From positions 4,847 through 68,846 of the forward strand of contig CAVREP010000016.1 of NCBI GenBank assembly GCA_963720155.1: a stretch of DNA of 64,000 nucleotides, read 5' to 3'. This DNA is from an uncultured Acidobacteriota bacterium. GTDB lineage: Bacteria; Acidobacteriota; Terriglobia; Terriglobales; Acidobacteriaceae. A model generated the notes under the pieces. It was not told the DNA's origin. It was given only the letters and a program-made list of their open reading frames with translations, and did no database searches. Below are positions 1,516-53,537 of the stretch, one piece after another; within the stretch, counting starts at the first letter, position 1; every line of letters begins with the position of its first letter. The position numbers and the translations under genes are program-made.

Positions 1516-4170
1516 TTACGGTTCTTCGAAGTTCAGAGCGTAGACGTCCTGCGTGCCGGTGTCGCGCAGAAGCAGCGGAGAGTCGTCGGGGGCCATACCG
1601 AGCCAGATGTTGAAAAAACCAGCCTGGCGGAAGTTCTTCAGATCGGCAACGCGCTCGACCTTGTGGTCAGTGAGATGGACCCGCATCACAGAGGGCTGAT
1701 CTTCTTCGTGCAGGAAGTACACGTACTCTGAATTCTTCGACCAGTTGGGGAAACCCATGGTGACGCGGGCGAGCTCCTGCCATTTCTGAGTCTGGAAGTC
1801 GTACAGCATCAGGACGCGCGAATCAGAGTTCATGGCGGCGATATAGCGTCCGTTGGGCGACCAGCGTGGAGAGTAGAGTCCGGTGGAATCAGGCAGACTC
1901 GAAAGCTGGTTCGTTTTCACGTCGAGGATACGGATGCTGCTGTTGGGATTCGCTGGTCCGTTGGCGAAAACGATTCGGGTTCCGTCGGCAGACCAATCGG
2001 CGTCGTATTTCAGTTCGGGGTCGTCGGCGATGAGTTCGCGGGGAGTTCCGCCGTCGGCGGAGACCATATACATCTTCGCGTTCTGCCCGGGCGAAAATCC
2101 GAAGAACACGATCTGCTTGCCGTCGGGAGACCAACTTGGCAGCAGCGCCGCCATAGGCGGGAAACTGAGTTCAATCCGCTGGCTGCCGTCTGGCTTACTC
2201 CTCCAGAGAGTCGCTCCGGGGAAGGTGGAGTAAGCGACCCACTGACCGTCTCTGGAAAATCTGACACTGTCGGCGGAAAGCCCGGAGAGGAATGGAGAGA
2301 ATTGTCCGGACTTCACGTCGTAGCGCGAAAGTTCGCCGTGCTGTAGCGCGCCGACGACGAAGAGCTTCTTGCCATCCTTGCTCAACAGCGGCGAGAAATA
2401 GCCTAAGGGGCCCGAGGTCAGTTGGACTGGCTGCGAAATGGTCTTTCCAAACCAGTTCCTTTTTTCCGCCCGCGACCATATGTTGAAGCCGGACTGAAAT
2501 ATGAAGTAGTTCGCGTCTGGAGTCCACCGACCGCAGCATTCCGAAGCAGTGCTGCGCCAACCGGGCAACAACGCATGCGGATTCGTGCTGTCAGCCCCAA
2601 CCTCCCAGAGAGAGCCCAAAGAGTTGAACCCTCCGCCGAGGCGGAAGCGAATCGACTTCGCATCTGGCGACCAGGCTGGATCAAATACGGCATCAGACAG
2701 CGAGACGAGTTTGCGAGATTCACTGCCATCGCTTTTCGAGAGGAAGAGATTATTGCCGGAACAGTAGACAATCATCTGACCATCCGGTGAAAAGGCAGCG
2801 GCGGGAGTGTCGATGTCGCCCAACTTCCGCGCAGAGCCGCCCAGCACAGGCACGGACCAGAGCGGACCATGGAATGCCGTCTGCCCGACCTCGTCTGCGA
2901 CTAATAGAGTTGAGCCGTCGGGAGAGACAGACAGCGGGGCCATTGTCGGAGTGGGGAGGGGAACACGTGCTACGTCTCCGCCGGTTGCGGCAACCTGCGC
3001 CATGATGGGGCCCTCGGCAGCAAATTCCATGAGATAAAGTCGCGAGCCATCTGTTCCGACCAGGAACTTGGGATTTCCGTCGTGCGTCACCGGAACATAG
3101 CCGGAAACGCTGGGCGTTGGCAGAGGACGTGACTGGAAGTAGTGGAGGACAACTGCCGCCACGACTAAGGCGGCAGCTCCAATTCCCCATATCCTCCATG
3201 CCGGGCGCTTCGGCAGGGCGGCAACGGCGTCGCTTGACGGACGATCTCCAACGTAGATCTCGGAGCGGGAGGCTGAGGTCACGCCAGAGCGGCCGGAGTC
3301 GGTGTCGCGCTTCAAGCGTTGCAGGTCGGCGCGCATCTCCGCTGCGCTCTGGTAGCGTAGGTTGCGATCTTTCTCCAGGGCTTTGTTGATGATGTCTTCC
3401 AGCTTTGGCGACAGCGAGGGATTAAACCGAATCGCGGGCGGTGGAGTCGAATCGAGGATCGCCTTGAAGATGACGCCCGAACTCTCTCCCTGAAACGGCA
3501 ACACTCCAGTCGCCATCTCATACAGCACCGCTCCAAACGAGAACAAATCGGTACGGGCATCCAACTCTCTCGCCCGCACCTGCTCCGGCGACATGTAACA
3601 CACAGTGCCCAGCGCAGCTCCGGGACTGGTCAACTGCTGTTCGTTCACCGTGCGCGTCAGGGTGTTGTCGGATGCCATCTGGCTCGAGGAACTGCCGGCG
3701 GACGCGACCTTCGCCAACCCGAAGTCGAGGATCTTGGCGTGCCCGCGCTCGGTTACAAAGATGTTGGCTGGCTTTATGTCACGATGCACGATGCCCTTGG
3801 CGTGAGCGGCGTCGAGCGCATCGGCCACTTCAGTGGCGAGGGGCAGCAGGACTTCCAGATCCAGCGGGCGCCCCCCGATGCGGTGCTTCAACGTCAGCCC
3901 GTCGAGAAACTCCATGGCGATGAACGCCATCCCGTTTTCTTCGCCAATGTCGTGAATCGTGCAGATGTTCGGATGGTTCAACGCCGAGGCGGCCTGCGCT
4001 TCGCGTTGAAAGCGGGCGAGCGCCTGGGTGTCTCGGGCAACTTCATCAGGGAGGAACTTGAGGGCGACGAACCGGTGCAGGCGGGTGTCTTCGGCCTTAT
4101 AGACAACGCCCATTCCGCCGCCGCCGAGCTTCTCGATGATGCGGTAGTGCGAGATGGTTTGGCCGATCAT
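1516..4170 (-). CDS. Ser/Thr protein kinase with C-terminal TolB/PD40-like beta-propeller
   Basis: 884-aa ORF with ATG at 4170. Kinase motifs [38 protein letters not shown]. One TM segment ([15 protein letters not shown]). The C-terminal half has repeated SPDG/WSPD blades. Confidence 0.9.
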
Positions 4171-4445: not shown

Positions 4446-7160
4446 TTACGGTTTGGACTCTTGCAGGAGCACAACGTCGGAATCGGTGTGGCCGCGGATC
4501 AAACCCAGCTTGCTGCCGTCGAAAGACCAGTGAAGCTCCATGATGTGTTCCGACTTGAAGTCGGTGATCTGCTTTCCCGGCGAACCGTCGAGAGGCTGGA
4601 GCCAGAGGTTATCAGCGTCTTGGTCAGGGAAAGGATAAACGACAGCTTTGCCATCAGGGGTGAAGCGGACAGTCCACTGGACCGGGCGTTGCGGGTCCAG
4701 AAGTTTCGTATTCTGAGGAGAATCGACTGAGACCAATGCCAGCTGTTGCTTAGGATTGCTGGGAGACCCAACGGTTGAAAAAGCTGCCAGCTTGCCGTCT
4801 GGAGAAATGTCGAATCCGTATGCCGGAAGCTCGGAGATCCTTTCCGGCTTCCCTCCTTCTAAAGGCACCCTGGTTAGCTTTGCGCCATTGGCTAAATCCG
4901 AGTAGTACACCCATTTTTCATCTGGAGAACAGATCGCAAATTGGTCCATTTTGCCGTCACTCAGCTGTTTAAGGTTCCCGCCGCCAGCGTCCATCCGCCA
5001 GATGGTTACCGTTCTCACGCCGCCGTGGAGGCCAATCGAGGACACCACATAGCGGCCATTTGCGCACGCCGAAGGCTGAAACGCCAAGCCATCCTGCTGC
5101 GGCGAAGTGAGCGGCGTCATATCTCCACTGTCAGGGTGGAAGAGGTTCAGGGCATCCTGTCCGAGAATCATTTGGCCACCTGGTGTCCAGGCAAAGCTGC
5201 CCACGCGAGCCCCGGAGGTGAGATGCTTCGCTTGGGCGCCGCTCAGGTCAGATGCGGGGGCCACGAAGAGATCGAAGTGATCCTGTTTTAGAACGGTCGC
5301 CAACATGCGCCCATCGGCGGAAAGACTAAGGTCGGAATAATCGTTGACGTCGTGAGTGACACCGTGAGATTTACGGTCTTGATCGGAAATTTCTACAATT
5401 TGCTGGCGAGTGAAATTGGTTTCTCTGCCGGTATAGAGCGCCAGCAAACCGGCGCCATCGACCAACCACGCGGGGTGCGACAGACGCCCGTCTTTGGATT
5501 CGAAGATAAGGTTTTGTTTGCCGGTCATTGCATCGACCGCCACCAATCCGCTGATGGCATCTCTTGGTTGAACGATCACGCAGATAATCGTCTTGCCGTC
5601 GGGCGACCAGGCCGGGTCGTACAAGGATTGATTCATGTTACCGGTAACCAGCGTTTTCCCCTCGCCGGTTTCAAGGGAATAAACTACCAGGCGGAACTTG
5701 CCCAGTTCCGGGTTATTTTGCACGACATATGCAAGACTGCGGCCGTCGGGGGAAAAGGTGATGTTCGTGTCCACGTCGGTGATGAGCTTTTGCGGAGTGC
5801 CACCCAGGACCGGCGCACGATAGAGGTAGTGCAGTAACTTCCCCATCTCCCCGCGGACAAAGTAAAGGTAATTTCCATCGGGAGAGAAGCGTACACCTAT
5901 ATACCGCAACGGCTCGGGAGGCATGACCTGAGTGTTGCTGTTCGTAGGAACGTTCCGTAGCCACAAGCTCTGCTGCCCTTTGTCACCCACGACACTCAAG
6001 ATGTATTTGCCATCTGGAGAGATGGCTGCCCGCGTAACCTTGCCGGTCTCTGTAATCTTGTTGACGGAAAAACTCTGAAACGGAATAGGCCGGGTACGAG
6101 AAAGGAAAGCATAGATGCCATAGGCGGCAGCTGCCACCAGCAAAACGACGATTACGCTGGTGACGCCAATTCCCACTTTGTGCTGGCGTGCGGCGGCCAC
6201 CACAGCTGAACTGCTGCTCGTGTGCGCGGGCTCGGCAACTGCTGGTGCCGAGGCTCCTGATTCTGCGCTCACTGCCGGGACTTGGCGACTGGACTCGGTG
6301 TCACGCCTTAGCCGTTGCAGATCGGCCCGCATCTCCGCCGCACCCTGATACCGCAGATTGCGGTCTTTCTCCAGTGCCTTGCTAATGATCCGTTCCAGTT
6401 CAGCGGGCAAATCAGGATTCAGCCGCACCGCAGGCGTGGGAGCGGCGTCCAAAATGGCTTTAAAGATGACTGCGGAACTCTCTCCACGGAACGGCAACTG
6501 CCCTGTGGCCATCTCATAGAGGACGACTCCAAACGAGAACAGATCAGTCCGGGCGTCCAACTCTTTCGCCCGTGCCTGCTCCGGCGACATATAAGCGACG
6601 GTTCCCAGTGCACTGCCAGGACTTGTCAGATGTTCCTCGGACTCGATGGTCAGGGCGCTCATGGCAACGCTCGCCTGCGTGAGGGAAACCTTGGCCAGCC
6701 CGAAATCCAGAATCTTGGCGTGGCTGTGCTCGGTCACAAAAATGTTCGCAGGCTTTATGTCGCGATGAACAACGCCCTTGGCGTGCGCCGCATTCAGAGC
6801 ATCGGCAATTTCGGTAGCGAGCGATAGAATCAGTTCGGTTTCCAGCGGACGCCCCGCGATGCGGTGCTTCAGCGTCAGGCCATCCAGAAACTCCATGGCG
6901 ATAAAGGACTGGTCACCGTGCTTGCCGATGTCGTAAATGGTGCAGATGTTGGGGTGGTTCAAAGCGGAGGCGGCACGAGCTTCACGGCGGAAGCGTTCCA
7001 ATGCCTGCGAATCTTGGGACACGTCATCGGGCAGGAACTTGAGCGCAACGAAACGACCCAGCTCGGTGTCCTCGGCCTTGTAAACTACGCCCATACCGCC
7101 GCCGCCCAACTTCTCGACGATGCGATAGCGCGAAATGGTCTGGCCGATCACTCGCGGCAA
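4446..7160 (-). CDS. Ser/Thr protein kinase with C-terminal TolB/PD40-like beta-propeller (paralog)
   Basis: 904-aa ORF. Kinase domain is about 80 percent identical by eye to the neighbour ([16 protein letters not shown]). TM segment [21 protein letters not shown]-repeat propeller. The track start is TTG 7160; alignment with the paralog (MIGQTIS) favours GTG at 7151. Confidence 0.9.
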
Positions 7161-45028: not shown

Positions 45029-45056
45029 AATTATGCGTTGTACATAGATATGCGGA
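45029..45056. repeat. RIT1 inverted repeat, left
   Basis: AATTATGCGTTGTACATAGATATGCGGA. The reverse complement of 53510-53537 matches with 3 mismatches. Confidence 0.8.
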
Positions 45057-47323: not shown

Positions 47324-48099
47324 ATCCCCTCGGTCCGCACCTGACAGTATTCCTGCGCGAATACCTTCCAAGACAACGTGAAATGAGCGCACAAACGTCC
47401 GACACGTATGCGTATGCCTTCCAACTGCTGGTGTGTTTCGCTGCCAAGCGCCTGAAGACGACTCCTTCTAAGCTCTCCATCGAGCAACTCGATGCGACAC
47501 TCGTGTTGGCTTTCCTCGAAAGCCTCGAAAAAGAGCGGGGAAACTGCGCCAAAACACGCAACTCACGACTAGCCGCTGTCAAAACGTTCTTCCGTTTCCT
47601 GGAATACCGGTTACCGTCCTGCCTTGATCAGGCCCGACGAGTTCGCGCTATCCCGGTGAAGAAAACCGACGAGGTCATCGTCGGTTTTCTCAATCGCGAG
47701 GAGATCCAGGCTTTGTTGGATGCTCCTGATCCAAAATCCCGATACGGGTTGCGGGACCGCGCCATGCTTTATCTTGCCTATGCTTGCGGACTGCGTGTCT
47801 CGGAACTCGTCTGTCTACACATGGATGATTTAGCCTTCCATCCTCAACCGACGATTCATGTGATGGGAAAGGGCCGACGCGAGCGGGTGCTGCCGCTGTG
47901 GAAAGAGACAGCCATAGCGCTTCGGGATTGGGTTAAGGTGCGAGGCGAGACAAAAAGTGGAGCTATATTCCTGAACGCTGGTCACGAGGCTATGACCCGG
48001 TCGGGATTCGAATACATTCTGGCCAAGCACGTTCAGACTGCCAGCGTCAGGCAACCTTCGTTGACCAGAAAGCGAGTATCACCTCACATCATGCGACAC
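47320..48099 (+). pseudogene. ritC: tyrosine recombinase RitC, 5' part (interrupted by RIT2)
   Basis: Sensible up to ..VMGKGRRERVLPLWKET..KRVSPHIMRH (codon CAC 48097-48099). The following 45 codons are RIT2 end sequence. Confidence 0.85.
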
Positions 48100-48122
48100 T
48101 ATCTACCCTTCCTGACTATGTC
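48100..48122. repeat. RIT2 inverted repeat (ritC-proximal end)
   Basis: TATCTACCCTTCCTGACTATGTC, the exact reverse complement of 53176-53198. Confidence 0.9.
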
Positions 48123-48223: not shown

Positions 48224-48644
48224 CTACAAACTATTGAGGAAGCCAAGCAGTTGGTCTCCCGGTTGGTAGCGCCCCGGTCTGCCGTGCGACGGTGATGTTT
48301 TGGCAAGGGCCCGCTCCTTCATTGCGAGTGTGGCTTCGAGATAAATCTGCGTGGTCTCCACCGACTCATGTCCGAGCCACAATGCAATAACGGAACGATC
48401 CACGCCCGCTGGTAGAAGGTCCATCGCCATCGTGTGCCTCAGGCGATGAACGGTGACCCGCTTTTCCTTCAACGACGGGCAGACTTTGGATGCTGTCGTG
48501 CGATGCTTGGTCAGCAGGTACTGCACACCGTGGACACTGAGACGTTCACCCTGAGCGCTGGGAAAGAGCAAGTCGTCGCCACCACGTTGCGGTTGTCGAA
48601 GCCAGGCTTTCAATACAGCGAGTGTGGATTGGGCAAGAGGTGTG
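48224..48644 (-). pseudogene. ritC: RitC2, 3' part
   Basis: ..CTPLAQSTLAVLKAWLRQ..KRVTVHRLRHTMAMDLLPAGVDRSVIALWLGHESVETTQIYL.. Continuous with 50318-50895 once 48645-50317 is removed. Confidence 0.85.
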
Positions 48645-49382
48645 GTGCAGCGATGCTAGCTGCCATTCTAGCGGGTGCAAGACCCGCCCGTGGAACTTGC
48701 CCAGTTGCCACGGTAGCAATATCCGGCGGTGAAACGGGAGACCAATTCACCGGAAGCCCGGAAGTAAAAGCCCCCGTTGGCCGAGCAGAGATGCTTGGTC
48801 GGATCCGCCAGGGGGGCAAACAACTCGACAGGTCGTAACGCAAGTGAACCGTAGTTAAGCTCCGAAATAGCCCCCCACGGGAAGCGGATTGTGGGAAATG
48901 ATGGAAGTGCCGAGTCGCTCACGCTATGACGAAGGCCAACGTCGACGGCGAAGGAACTGGGTACATGCAACCGTCGAACTTCCTGGAGTCGCAGAGGACG
49001 ACATGTTGAGACAGAATGGTCAGCGAAAGCACGGAACCACTCCCGGGTCGCCTAGGCGCACCCGCACAGCGAAGGCATCGCATATAAACCGCCCTGCGGC
49101 GAAACTGCGTTGTGCCCGAGAGTGGGACGGATGTGGCCGAATAAGTGTTGATGGACTGGGACAACATAACCCAGACCGGAGCGAGGGCCACTGGGGTAGA
49201 AGAGGGAACTCTTCGCATGGTGGTGTGTCGTTAGCCCCTCCTTCCCGACTCTGAGCGGGAGTTCAAGGAGTAGGCCCGATGCACGAAGGACAGAGGCAAA
49301 GCAAGCGAACCGCTGAGCATGCCGGGTGCAGGCTTAACCAGCGGGACGTGCGCGAAGGCGCTGTCTGACAGGCCAGCCTTTC

Positions 49383-49414
49383 AGCCGTACTGGGGTAAAC
49401 CCACTGTACGGAAT
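49383..49414 (+). ncRNA. group II intron domain V (outer copy)
   Basis: AGCCGUAC-UGGG-GUAAA-CCCA-CU-GUACGG. AGC triad at the 5' base and a 2-nt 3' bulge. Confidence 0.75.
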
Positions 49415-49440
49415 GATAGGGGGGACGGTGGAAACGTCGG

Positions 49441-50277
49441 GTGCAGCGATGCTAGTTGGCGTTCTAGCTGGTGAGAGTCCAGCCAGGGGAACTTGCCCAG
49501 TTGCCCCTGTAGTGATATCCGGCGGCGGAGCGGGTGACCAATCCGACCGGAAGCCCGGAAGTAAACGTCCACGTCGGCTGGGTGAAAACCTAGTCAGCTC
49601 CGACAGGTGGGCTAGCAAATCAGCAGGTTGTAGCGAAAGTGAACTGTAGGTAAACCTCGAAAACCACCGCCCCACGAGAATCGGAGGGTGGGGAGCCTCG
49701 GAAGTGCCGAGACGTCCGACGTAGTCGAAGGCCAGTGTTGTCGGTGAAGGAACTGGGTGCATGCAGCCGACAAACTTCCCGTGGTCGCAGGGGACGACAT
49801 GTTGATAGAGGACAGCCAACGAAAGCACGGAACCACTCGTGGGGCGCCTAGGCGCACCCGCACAGCGAAGGCATCGCCTATAAACCGCAAGCCGGCGAAA
49901 TGGCGGTGTACCCACGAGTGGGACGCATGAGGCCGATTAAGTGAGGATGGTCCGGGACAACATAACCCGGACCGGAGCGAGGGCCTCTGGGGTAGAGGAG
50001 ATTACTCCTCGCATGGCGGTGCATCTTTTAGCCATCCTTCCCGACACAGTGCGGGAGTTAAGGAGCATGGCCCGGATGCGCGAAGGACGGATGCAAAGCA
50101 GGCGTTGCGCTGGGTATGCCGGGTGCAGGCTTAACCAGTGGAGCGAGTGCCAAGGCGCTGTCTGATAGGCCAGCCTTCCAGCCGGACTGGGGAAAACCCG
50201 CTGTCCGGAATGATAGGGAGGACGATGGAAACATCGGCATCATTCGAAGCCCGATTAGCGCCATCGTCCTACCCGAC
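49441..50277 (+). mobile_element. ORF-less group II intron (inner, 837 nt) inserted in domain VI of the outer intron
   Basis: 5' GUGCAGCG. EBS1 CCGACGU and EBS2 CCACCG are perfectly complementary to the upstream flank. Domain V at 50180. Domain VI 50216-50228/50261-50274 with bulged A 50271. 3' ..ACCCGAC. Confidence 0.85.
50180..50211 (+). ncRNA. group II intron domain V (inner copy)
   Basis: AGCCGGAC-UGGG-GAAAA-CCCG-CU-GUCCGG. Compensatory change relative to the outer copy. Confidence 0.75.
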
Positions 50278-50317
50278 CATCATTCGAAGCCCGCTACGCG
50301 CCACTGTCCTACCCGAC

Positions 50318-50895
50318 CAGCGTTCTTTGCGGCCCTTGCCGATCACGCGCAGGTGAGCCCCAGTCCCAACGATGAGGTCCGCGCGTTTGAGACCGGTCAT
50401 TTCCGATAAGCGTAGGCCCGTCTGTACCGCCACGAGCAGAAAGGCGTGATCGCGCCGACCAGACCAGGTGAACTGATCCGGAGCGGCCAGCAAGGCATCG
50501 ACTTCGGGGCGAGTGAGGAACTGGACCAGGGTACGGGTGAAACGCTTGCTGGGGATGGCGAGCACACGCTGGATCTGTGCGGAATGGGCAGGCGACTCGA
50601 AAGCCGCGTATCGAAAGAAGGAGTGAATCGCTGTCAGGCGCAGATTACGACTGCGAATACTTACGCCTCGGTGCTTTTCCAGTTCATCCAAAAAAGCCAC
50701 GATCAGGGGGGCATCAATCTCCTCGAAGGTCAGGCGTGATGGCGGTTTGCGAAGCCGCTGCTGAACGAACTTCAGGAACTGTCGGAAGCAGTCGCGATAG
50801 GAACTGATGGTGTGTGGGCTCGCCTGACGCTGCTGCATCAAGCGCTGGGTAAAGAAACGCTGCAATAGGGGAGCCAAGCTGATGGGAGTGATCAT
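50318..50895 (-). pseudogene. ritC: RitC2, 5' part
   Basis: MITPISLAPLLQRFFTQRLMQQR..LRVIGKGRKER. ATG 50895 overlaps the ritB2 stop (ATGA). The frame runs into intron sequence after 50318. Confidence 0.85.
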
Positions 50896-53175: not shown

Positions 53176-53198
53176 GACATAGTCAGGAAGGGTAGATA
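53176..53198. repeat. RIT2 inverted repeat (ritA-proximal end)
   Basis: GACATAGTCAGGAAGGGTAGATA. Confidence 0.9.
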
Positions 53199-53232
53199 GT
53201 GGCGCCTATGTCTCTGGGTACATAGCAGGCAC

Positions 53233-53509: not shown

Positions 53510-53537
53510 TCCGCATATCTATGGACGGCGCATAATT
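53510..53537. repeat. RIT1 inverted repeat, right
   Basis: TCCGCATATCTATGGACGGCGCATAATT. Confidence 0.8.

Follow-up and report, generated by a model that had tools for sequence, protein, structure and literature searches.

Two group II introns that lack open reading frames (ORFs), one inserted within the other, occupy positions 48645-50317 (+) of a 64-kb stretch of DNA from an uncultured member of the Acidobacteriota (64,000 nt in full; hereafter, the window), where together they form one exact insertion of 1,673 bp. Both belong to a family of ORF-less introns found in several phyla, many members of which lie inside reverse transcriptase (RT)-encoding group II introns of a different ribozyme type. 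The pair probably represents non-autonomous, IIB-like retroelements of one family, for which the RT/maturase would be provided in trans by introns of the Rfam D1D4-6 type. The evidence comprises the architecture and exactness of the insertion, covariation in the ribozyme and between the introns and their flanks, and the sites at which dozens of relatives reside.

Architecture and insertion site of the nested pair

The outer intron, 836 nt long, is present as two segments. The 5′ segment (48645-49440, +), which comprises domains I-V and the 5′ strand of domain VI, corresponds to positions 1-792 of the family hidden Markov model (HMM; 726 bits), and the 3′ segment (50278-50317, +), which carries the 3′ strand of domain VI, the branch-point A at 50311 and the terminal GAC, corresponds to positions 793-832. 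Between them, in the distal part of the outer domain VI, lies the complete inner intron of 837 nt (49441-50277, +; HMM positions 1-832, 717 bits). The two copies are 79.3% identical to each other, begin with the same sequence (GTGCAGCG, at 48645 and 49441) and end with the same sequence (GTCCTACCCGAC, at 50317 and 50277), in agreement with a preliminary description of this locus, which had proposed two copies of about 836 nt, 75-80% identical by eye, with a common 5′ start and a common 3′ end in ..ACCCGAC. The outer copy is 97.7% identical to a copy in locus L010 (L-numbers denote loci from other genomes and metagenome contigs).

Taken alone, the order of the pieces along the DNA also permits a tandem reading, namely a 3′-truncated copy followed by a complete copy and then by a stray 40-nt duplicate. 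We give this reading practically no credence and regard it as already refuted, as four observations contradict it. The 40-nt tail strand CCACTGTCC is complementary to GGACGGTGG of the first, outer copy and not to the stem of the second copy, which has its own matched domain VI stem pair (GGACGATGG and CCATCGTCC); the exon-binding sites EBS1 and EBS2 of the second copy perfectly match its own 5′ flank; the identical junction is present in 25 metagenome contigs with differing outer introns; and comparison with an empty site identifies the full 1,673 bp as one insertion. The arrangement is thus nested rather than tandem, and the order of the two insertions is the part of this history that we infer.

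The pair is located, in antisense orientation, within the third tyrosine recombinase gene of a minus-strand trio. Excision of 48645-50317 fuses the N-terminal part of this gene (50895-50318, -) to the C-terminal part (48644-48224, -) and yields an intact recombinase of 332 aa, in which the junction motif, GKGRKER joined to CTPL, is colinear with a paralogue. The best 120 database matches of the restored protein are 326-346 aa long (mostly 332) and 89-95% identical to it, the few source names among them being Terriglobales and Sulfotelmatobacter. The split recombinase gene in the annotation of the window is hence explained by the intron pair. At the DNA level, the empty site was found in the metagenome contig L121, where GGATTGGGCAAGAGGTGTG is followed directly by CAGCGTTC. 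Because this site is contiguous across the junction, the insertion is exact at 48645/50317 and has no target duplication, as reverse splicing predicts. The same contig also shows a convergent, overlapping pair of recombinase genes.

The interrupted gene is the last of three overlapping recombinase genes enclosed by 30-nt inverted repeats (48093-48122 and 53176-53205). A second trio, on the plus strand, has inverted repeats at 45029-45056 and 53510-53537, and its third gene is itself split by the minus-strand trio, with the C-terminal remainder (..RHSCAMHTLQATGDIRKVALWLGH..) located after 53206. The six Phage_integrase proteins therefore form two sets of three adjacent, co-oriented tyrosine recombinases with bounding inverted repeats, which we take to be recombinase-in-trio (RIT) elements. 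Nesting at this locus is four deep: trio element, trio element, outer intron and inner intron.

The position within a recombinase gene of a mobile element could be taken to mean that the pair has been domesticated for regulation, acting on the trio as, for instance, a ribozyme or an antisense switch. We consider such a role highly improbable, given that the best 120 matches are uninterrupted proteins of similar length, the one site seen at the DNA level (L121) is empty, none of the other family copies seen lies in a recombinase gene, and the site matches only imperfectly the usual target of the subfamily to which the outer copy belongs, which is located in RT genes. Elsewhere in the window, GGAACTTGCCCAGTTCCG at 5693-5710 differs at two positions from a domain I motif that is conserved in the introns; this is probably a chance resemblance, as the family HMM finds nothing there.

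Ribozyme structure and exon recognition

Both copies are group II introns, as established by a covariance-model match, by covariation in the catalytic domains and by three exon-binding sites. The Rfam model RF02003 (group-II-D1D4-4) matches both copies with 78.3 and 70.1 bits (gathering score 49), at 48669-48843 in the outer copy and at 49465-49638 in the inner one. In these and in all relatives tested, the part of domain I at roughly intron positions 25-200 scores above the gathering threshold; the model consists of only 138 domain I positions and is silent on ORF content, domains V and VI and target sites, and our literature search found no paper that names it. The preliminary description had named both the group-II-D1D4 families and the domain V/VI model RF00029 as tools for checking the assignment, and only the former recognised the introns: RF00029 gave no match at E ≤ 10 in 48300-50700, nor on any ORF-less copy across 18 loci, although RT-encoding host introns in L058 and L078 do match it. 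A score with RF00029 is a means of detection and not a defining feature of group II introns. Since covariation supports domains V and VI, the miss reflects a non-canonical domain V and is no evidence against a group II intron.

Covariation was assessed in 24 distinct family sequences, with the 3′ partners slid by 1-3 columns as the control. Across domains V and VI, 97.3% of the cells form standard pairs, versus 30-41% with the slid partners, and seven pairs, of which domain VI contributes five, are altered on both sides. Covariation and direct reading place domain V at 49382-49415 (+) in the outer copy and at 50179-50212 (+) in the inner copy. In the outer copy it spans 34 nt, with the AGC triad, a CT bulge and a GTAAA pentaloop. 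Throughout the family, the 12 pairs of domain V are formed in 99.3% of cells, with U-A to G-C and C-G/U-A/U-G changes, an invariant AGC triad (beginning at 49383 and 50180 in the window), a 2-nt bulge C(T/C) and a pentaloop G(A/U)AAA. The compensatory U-A to G-C change between the two copies, pointed out in the preliminary description together with the AGC positions, is present at column pair 7-27, which is UA in 22 sequences and GC in 2. The family has an A plus an extra A (AA) in place of the usual U opposite the triad G.

Domain VI is a 13-pair helix with a bulged A in at least 22 of the 24 sequences. In the window the single bulged A stands 7 nt before the 3′ end, as had been described, at 50311 in the outer copy and at 50271 in the inner copy, whose domain VI (50216-50274, +; covariation and direct reading) carries a homing-site copy of its own altered to ACATCGG. 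The family begins with GUGCA, a match at four of five positions to the group II consensus GUGYG, and A5 is found in all full-length copies read to the 5′ end. Among the departures from the textbook form listed earlier, A5 and the 5-nt loop stand, and the estimate of about 30 nt for domain V becomes 34 nt when the closing C-G and A-U pairs are counted. Because they are common to all copies, A5 and the deviations of domain V are family traits rather than decay. The inner copy retains every paired position of domains V and VI, and the outer copy differs at only 3 of 407 family-conserved columns. For the region of ~190 nt before domain V, presumed to be domain IV, the full-length RNAalifold consensus gave a rough structure only.

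The exon-binding sites lie at the same offsets in both copies, EBS2 at +223 and EBS1 at +275, and the intron-binding sites of the 5′ exon, IBS2 and IBS1, are separated by 2 nt; all the pairings proposed in the preliminary description were recovered. The target of the inner copy, within the outer domain VI (49426-49440, +), consists of IBS2 CGGTGG (49426-49431) and IBS1 ACGTCGG (49434-49440), which pair perfectly with EBS2 CCACCG (49664-49669, +) and EBS1 CCGACGT (49716-49722, +), respectively. The 5′ exon of the outer copy (48631-48644, +) is an imperfect, ectopic site: IBS2 GGGCAA (48631-48636) is complementary at five of six positions to EBS2 TAGCCC (48868-48873, +), and IBS1 GGTGTG (48639-48644) at six of six, including two G.U pairs, to EBS1 CACGCT (48920-48925, +), whereas the cognate sites of this subfamily read GGGCTG...(G/A)GCGTG. 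Taken singly, the pairing of the outer copy is weak evidence.

Across the family the same pairing is far beyond chance. In 51 non-redundant copies, each compared with its own flank and with 1000 flank shuffles, mean complementarity to the own flank was 5.80 of 6 for EBS1 and 5.48 of 6 for EBS2, versus 4.17 and 4.41 for the shuffled flanks, and none of the 1000 shuffles reached the observed values. The matching of EBS1 to its own flank spans 21 different IBS1 hexamers (for example, GGTCAT/atgacc, CAGATC/gatctg, TGGTCC/ggacca, GAGAAC/gttctc and CTACTC/gagtag), so that the proposed covariation of the EBS loops with their flanks, which a lack of homologues with matching flanks would have contradicted, is borne out by dozens of copies. 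In the metagenome loci L122, L134, L141 and L144, some outer introns start with TTGCAGCGA, with U replacing G at position 1, and EBS1 in these introns remains complementary to the flank as far as this boundary.

A third site, EBS3, was identified at the domain I column corresponding to inner position 347, the column that shares the most mutual information with the first 3′-exon base. Of 61 copies, 30 combine G with C and 28 combine A with T, so that 58 fit and three are exceptions. In the window, G48991 of the outer copy (+) pairs with C50318, the first 3′-exon base, and G49787 of the inner copy (+) pairs with C50278. In IIA introns the delta position adjoins EBS1; IIB introns instead pair the first 3′-exon base with an EBS3 located in domain I. 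Because the EBS3 column covaries with that base, and with no covariation seen at the base 5′ of EBS1, exon recognition is of the IIB type and not of the IIA or IIC type. Together, EBS1, EBS2 and EBS3 recognise a target of ~13 nt by base pairing. Class IIC introns, HYER among the candidates considered, are marked by the lack of EBS2, by insertion after a terminator or attC hairpin and, for HYER, by ribozymes of 0.4-0.6 kb; this identity was ruled out by the covarying EBS2, the length of ~830 nt and targets in introns and genes rather than at terminator or attC hairpins.

Distribution and target sites of the ORF-less family

Relatives were collected by a scan with a permissive domain V pattern, in which each species was represented by one genome, and were viewed in 8-kb blocks. 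At least 119 stretches were listed, from about 70 assemblies at least (counted by accession prefix), which belong to Acidobacteriota, Alphaproteobacteria, several delta-proteobacterial groups, Nitrospirota, Verrucomicrobiota and others and are mostly metagenome-assembled genomes (MAGs) from soil or peat. Among the matches listed for an HMM built from the two window copies were 65 full-length relatives of 811-837 nt, and none of the 65 contains an ORF. A profile search (E ≤ 1e-5) likewise found no RT in any ORF of the window, both introns included. The autonomous form of group II intron, with an RT/maturase encoded in domain IV, is therefore represented neither by the window copies nor by these relatives, and the earlier characterisation of the introns as ORF-less holds for the family sample as a whole.

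Near-identical copies point to recent movement. One MAG has eight copies that are 99.8-100% identical, residing in host introns with differing domain V sequences, and another has five copies, 97.4-100% identical, at unrelated sites. Because such copies sit in differing hosts or sites within single genomes, the mobility of the family is recent. No family match was found in the phage collection searched, and the plasmid collection held only a 5′-truncated fragment, in Bradyrhizobium plasmids, which a cobalamin riboswitch adjoins (L001, 4579-4779). A tmRNA gene adjoins a family copy in L068 (2296-2663). Our literature search found no description of the family; an earlier one is possible, and Rfam already models part of domain I.

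The family is broader than the sample, since both the pattern scan and nhmmer missed a diverged ORF-less relative at L105 (5700-6470), ~60 nt upstream of an outer-type copy in the same RT ORF. The domain V of this relative, GAACCGGACCTGGGAAAACCGGCCGTCCGGGATT, has AAC where AGC is expected, and its sequence ends with CTATCCCAAC. Nesting is also seen after family position 542 (..GGACCGGAGCG, directly before the junction) in L072 (1-3404), L075 (1217-2871) and L003 (7274-7989), where arrays of up to three or four are formed.

Many of the relatives are located inside RT-encoding group II introns that match RF02005 and RF00029 and whose RT matches TIGR04416 (357 bits). A group II RT gene was found within the 8-kb block on the same strand for 22 of the 65 copies listed and on the opposite strand for none. 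About a dozen of these 22 begin 38-40 nt past the end of the RT reading frame, with a 5′ flank made up of a canonical domain V 3′ strand and 2 further nt (e.g. GAGCCGUAUGCGGGCAAGCCGCACGUACGGUUCUG, up to the junction), and the host domain VI follows the insertion. A second class of target is domain I of the host intron (L106, L043). For the subfamily of the outer window copy, the cognate site is located in the RT ORF (5′ part), between ..SQGL.(S/G)V and RKAA.. (L010, L105 and L081), where the flank reads GGGCTG....GCGTG and continues after the junction with CGGAAAGCAG. The window site, GGGCAAGAGGTGTG followed by C, is a weaker look-alike of this sequence, and we read the outer copy as a putative ectopic retrotransposition that disrupted the recombinase gene. 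At the host-intron sites the ORF-less copies are always in the sense orientation. The host introns can be nested too: at L041 a 5′ fragment of an RT-encoding intron (3666-3826, GTGCGCCGGGAGACC...) is interrupted by a full copy from 3827.

The ORF-less introns and their hosts differ in the Rfam family that they match (RF02003 versus RF02005), and the family HMM gave only matches with E ≥ 0.48 to short domain I motifs in the host introns of the loci compared. A derivation of the family by ORF deletion from an RT-encoding host, of the kind known from Thermosynechococcus elongatus, was rejected for the hosts seen, as there are neither RT remnants nor similarity to these hosts. A pairing between CGGCAUCAU of the distal domain VI and the RT start AUGAUGC was likewise discarded, being available in only some hosts and, as a 7-mer match, near chance. 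Comparison of the host RTs with solved structures, in which IIC-type RTs were only marginally better than others, gave no class.

A further target, CGGTCG-N3-ATGACC followed by CAT after the junction, occurs in the 5′ flanks of copies in L085, L086, L089, L096, L048 and L013, outside any recognisable intron or gene, and can form a small hairpin, GGUC-N6-GACC. The idea that its ATGACC represents the start of a gene on the opposite strand was abandoned, because the healed sites give ORFs of only 18-53 aa (and one of 153 aa that does not begin with ATG). More generally, ORFs across healed junctions are uninformative on a sense or antisense preference, as G+C-rich DNA yields long random ORFs.

The inner copy represents a lineage that homes into the family itself. 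Its target, GG(N)G(N)TGGAAACGTCGG followed after the junction by CATCAT, corresponds to the distal, conserved stretch of domain VI in the family itself. The window junction recurs in L090 and L114, and a scan of metagenomes for it yielded the 25 further contigs mentioned above, some of them with triple nests; the hosts comprise several kinds of intron at several genomic sites, with at least six variants of the domain VI stem. Across the lineage EBS2 is CCACCG or CCATCG. The domain VI-homing introns would themselves offer this target, and in all 18 copies of the lineage their own homing-site copy is altered, most often to ACGGCGG (11 of 15 metagenome copies and L090), with ACAGCG, ACGCCGG and ACGAACGG as other forms and ACATCGG in the window, whereas ACGTCGG is kept in 47 of the 48 other copies read. 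The scan pattern fixed a T in the targets, and the lineage copies are related, though at least four different substitutions occur; read with these caveats, the pattern would suit selection for, or survival of, copies that their siblings cannot invade. In L114 (5477-6322) and L130, a domain VI-homing copy has a domain VI remnant as its 3′ flank and a transposase-like ORF containing GGCGATGGAAACGTCGG as its 5′ flank, which could result from recombination between two copies or from an ectopic site that mimics the target.

Proposed mobilisation in trans and its alternatives

We propose that each RNA would fold as a IIB-like ribozyme of six domains and find its target of ~13 nt through EBS1, EBS2 and EBS3. 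Splicing would be expected to yield a lariat, with the bulged A of domain VI as the branch point, and re-insertion would proceed by reverse splicing followed by cDNA synthesis. Since neither window copy encodes an RT, this enzyme would have to come in trans, and RT-encoding introns of the D1D4-6 type are the likely helpers because the normal homing sites of the family are conserved parts of these introns. Being always in the sense orientation at host sites, the ORF-less copies would be co-transcribed with the RT gene, and family RNAs would generally be transcribed with their host introns; the window pair might instead be transcribed by read-through from the plus-strand recombinase trio. Domain V, the RT ORF and domain VI may be favoured as targets because their sequences are constrained. 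Under this proposal, the outer copy, a member of the RT-ORF-homing subfamily, would have landed ectopically on the antisense strand of the recombinase gene. The inner copy is one of the sublineage whose targets lie in the conserved distal domain VI of related introns.

Several observations weigh against this proposal. The window contains no RT gene and no D1D4-6-type (RF02005) intron in its 64 kb, and for about two thirds of the copies listed no RT gene is visible in the 8-kb block. The family has no significant similarity to its hosts, so the RT would have to cross ribozyme types. RF00029 gives the family no score, and with A5 and the A opposite the triad G, catalytic competence is only predicted. 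Finally, the pair is oriented antisense to the gene that it interrupts, and its surroundings yielded no promoter-like site.

These last points bear on the alternative that the pair is an inert relic: transcription, splicing and mobility would all have ceased in this dead-end insertion, and the inactivation of the recombinase would be its only remaining effect. An intron antisense to its host gene cannot splice from the mRNA of that gene, and the missing promoter and RT, the ectopic and imperfect target site and the interruption of the outer domain VI by the inner copy all fit such a fate. Nevertheless, the outer copy, off at so few of the conserved columns, is 97.7% identical to copies in other genomes, the inner copy has kept all paired positions of domains V and VI, and the upstream trio on the plus strand could give read-through transcription. 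On balance, we regard an inert pair as unlikely, while taking it to be the most serious of the alternatives.

The visible shortage of RT genes bears on a different possibility, in which the RNAs would cleave or reverse-splice into DNA without any group II RT, as HYER and, in vitro, P.li.LSU.I2 are reported to do, and some other host activity would copy them into DNA. Such independence from protein would accord with the lack of ORFs in all 65 full-length copies listed, with a family that is not a deletion derivative of its hosts and with the copies that have no RT gene in their 8-kb block; moreover, multi-copy ORF-less IIC introns have been reported to be DNA endonucleases, and one IIB1 intron reverse-splices into DNA free of protein. 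Against it stands the strong, co-oriented association of the family with RT genes and RT-intron sequences, as well as the retention of a full branch-point domain VI, which fits lariat-based retromobility. Turning an RNA insertion into DNA would still require a reverse transcriptase, and the copies with no visible RT gene were judged on their 8-kb blocks. We therefore consider this possibility very unlikely and retain trans-mobilisation by D1D4-6-type introns as the probable explanation.

The closest parallel is found in T. elongatus, where the ORF-less TeI3 introns and the TeI4 twintrons have a conserved homing site in the RT ORF, at its 5′ end, inner copies are identical and outer copies diverged, and mobilisation in trans by 'driver' RTs was shown experimentally (Mohr et al. 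2010, PMC2882425). Both systems have ORF-less introns that target RT-encoding introns within the RT ORF, in its 5′ part. However, the TeI3 introns are deletion derivatives of co-resident RT introns in one genome and keep ORF remnants (PMC2882425), whereas the family described here has neither an ORF remnant nor significant similarity to its host introns, possesses a non-canonical domain V that RF00029 misses, is found in at least about 70 assemblies from several phyla, and also targets domain V and the junction J5/6, domain I and its own domain VI.

In Methanosarcina acetivorans, ORF-less and RT-encoding introns occur together in nests of up to five (Dai & Zimmerly 2003, as summarised in PMC4424553), which the same summary attributes to repeated site-specific homing into other group II introns, with flanking exons that are non-protein-coding. 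As far as that summary goes, this archaeal case concerns one genome and targets described in intron ORFs; the present family is, by comparison, bacterial and widespread and has several target classes, including the catalytic domain V/J5-6 and its own domain VI. HYER RNAs, as presented in PMC11754743 after Liu et al. (2024), are multi-copy ORF-less IIC introns of 0.4-0.6 kb that recognise ~7 bp. They resemble the present RNAs in being bacterial group II ribozymes without an intron-encoded protein, in several copies per genome; from that account, they differ from the introns described here, which are ~830 nt long, use EBS1, EBS2 and EBS3, have a branch-point domain VI and are not inserted after terminator hairpins. 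A bacterial intron-in-intron is also known from Trichodesmium, where the group II twintron is reported to splice sequentially (Pfreundt & Hess 2015, PMC4649490); the window pair differs from the arrangement reported there in being antisense to its host gene.

Non-autonomous ORF-less group II introns, twintrons and homing into other introns are thus already known, from T. elongatus and Methanosarcina. What appears to be new is a lineage that is apparently exclusively ORF-less, not derived from its hosts and spread over several phyla, with a domain V that escapes the standard model. Two of its target classes are also new: domain V (3′ strand) with J5/6, and domain VI of the family itself, in combination with a mutated self-site. 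From these features we sketch, tentatively and with slightly more doubt than conviction, an old and independently evolving IIB-like lineage that is purely ORF-less and would be an obligate parasite of RT introns of another type at sites that are hard to change, accompanied by a second-order parasite of domain VI whose own site is mutated, the whole having been missed by surveys on account of its domain V.

Because domain V escapes RF00029, pipelines that rely on this model would miss the family, whose near-identical copies within single genomes show that it is still spreading. If mobilisation in trans is true, a compact ribozyme of ~830 nt that reads a target of ~13 nt may interest builders of RNA-guided tools, and the family would be a test case for the laxity of the RNA specificity of an intron RT. 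It would also constitute a natural bacterial analogue, among group II introns, of the dependence of short interspersed nuclear elements on long ones (SINE/LINE), and an instance of layered parasitism that runs from mobile element to intron to intron.

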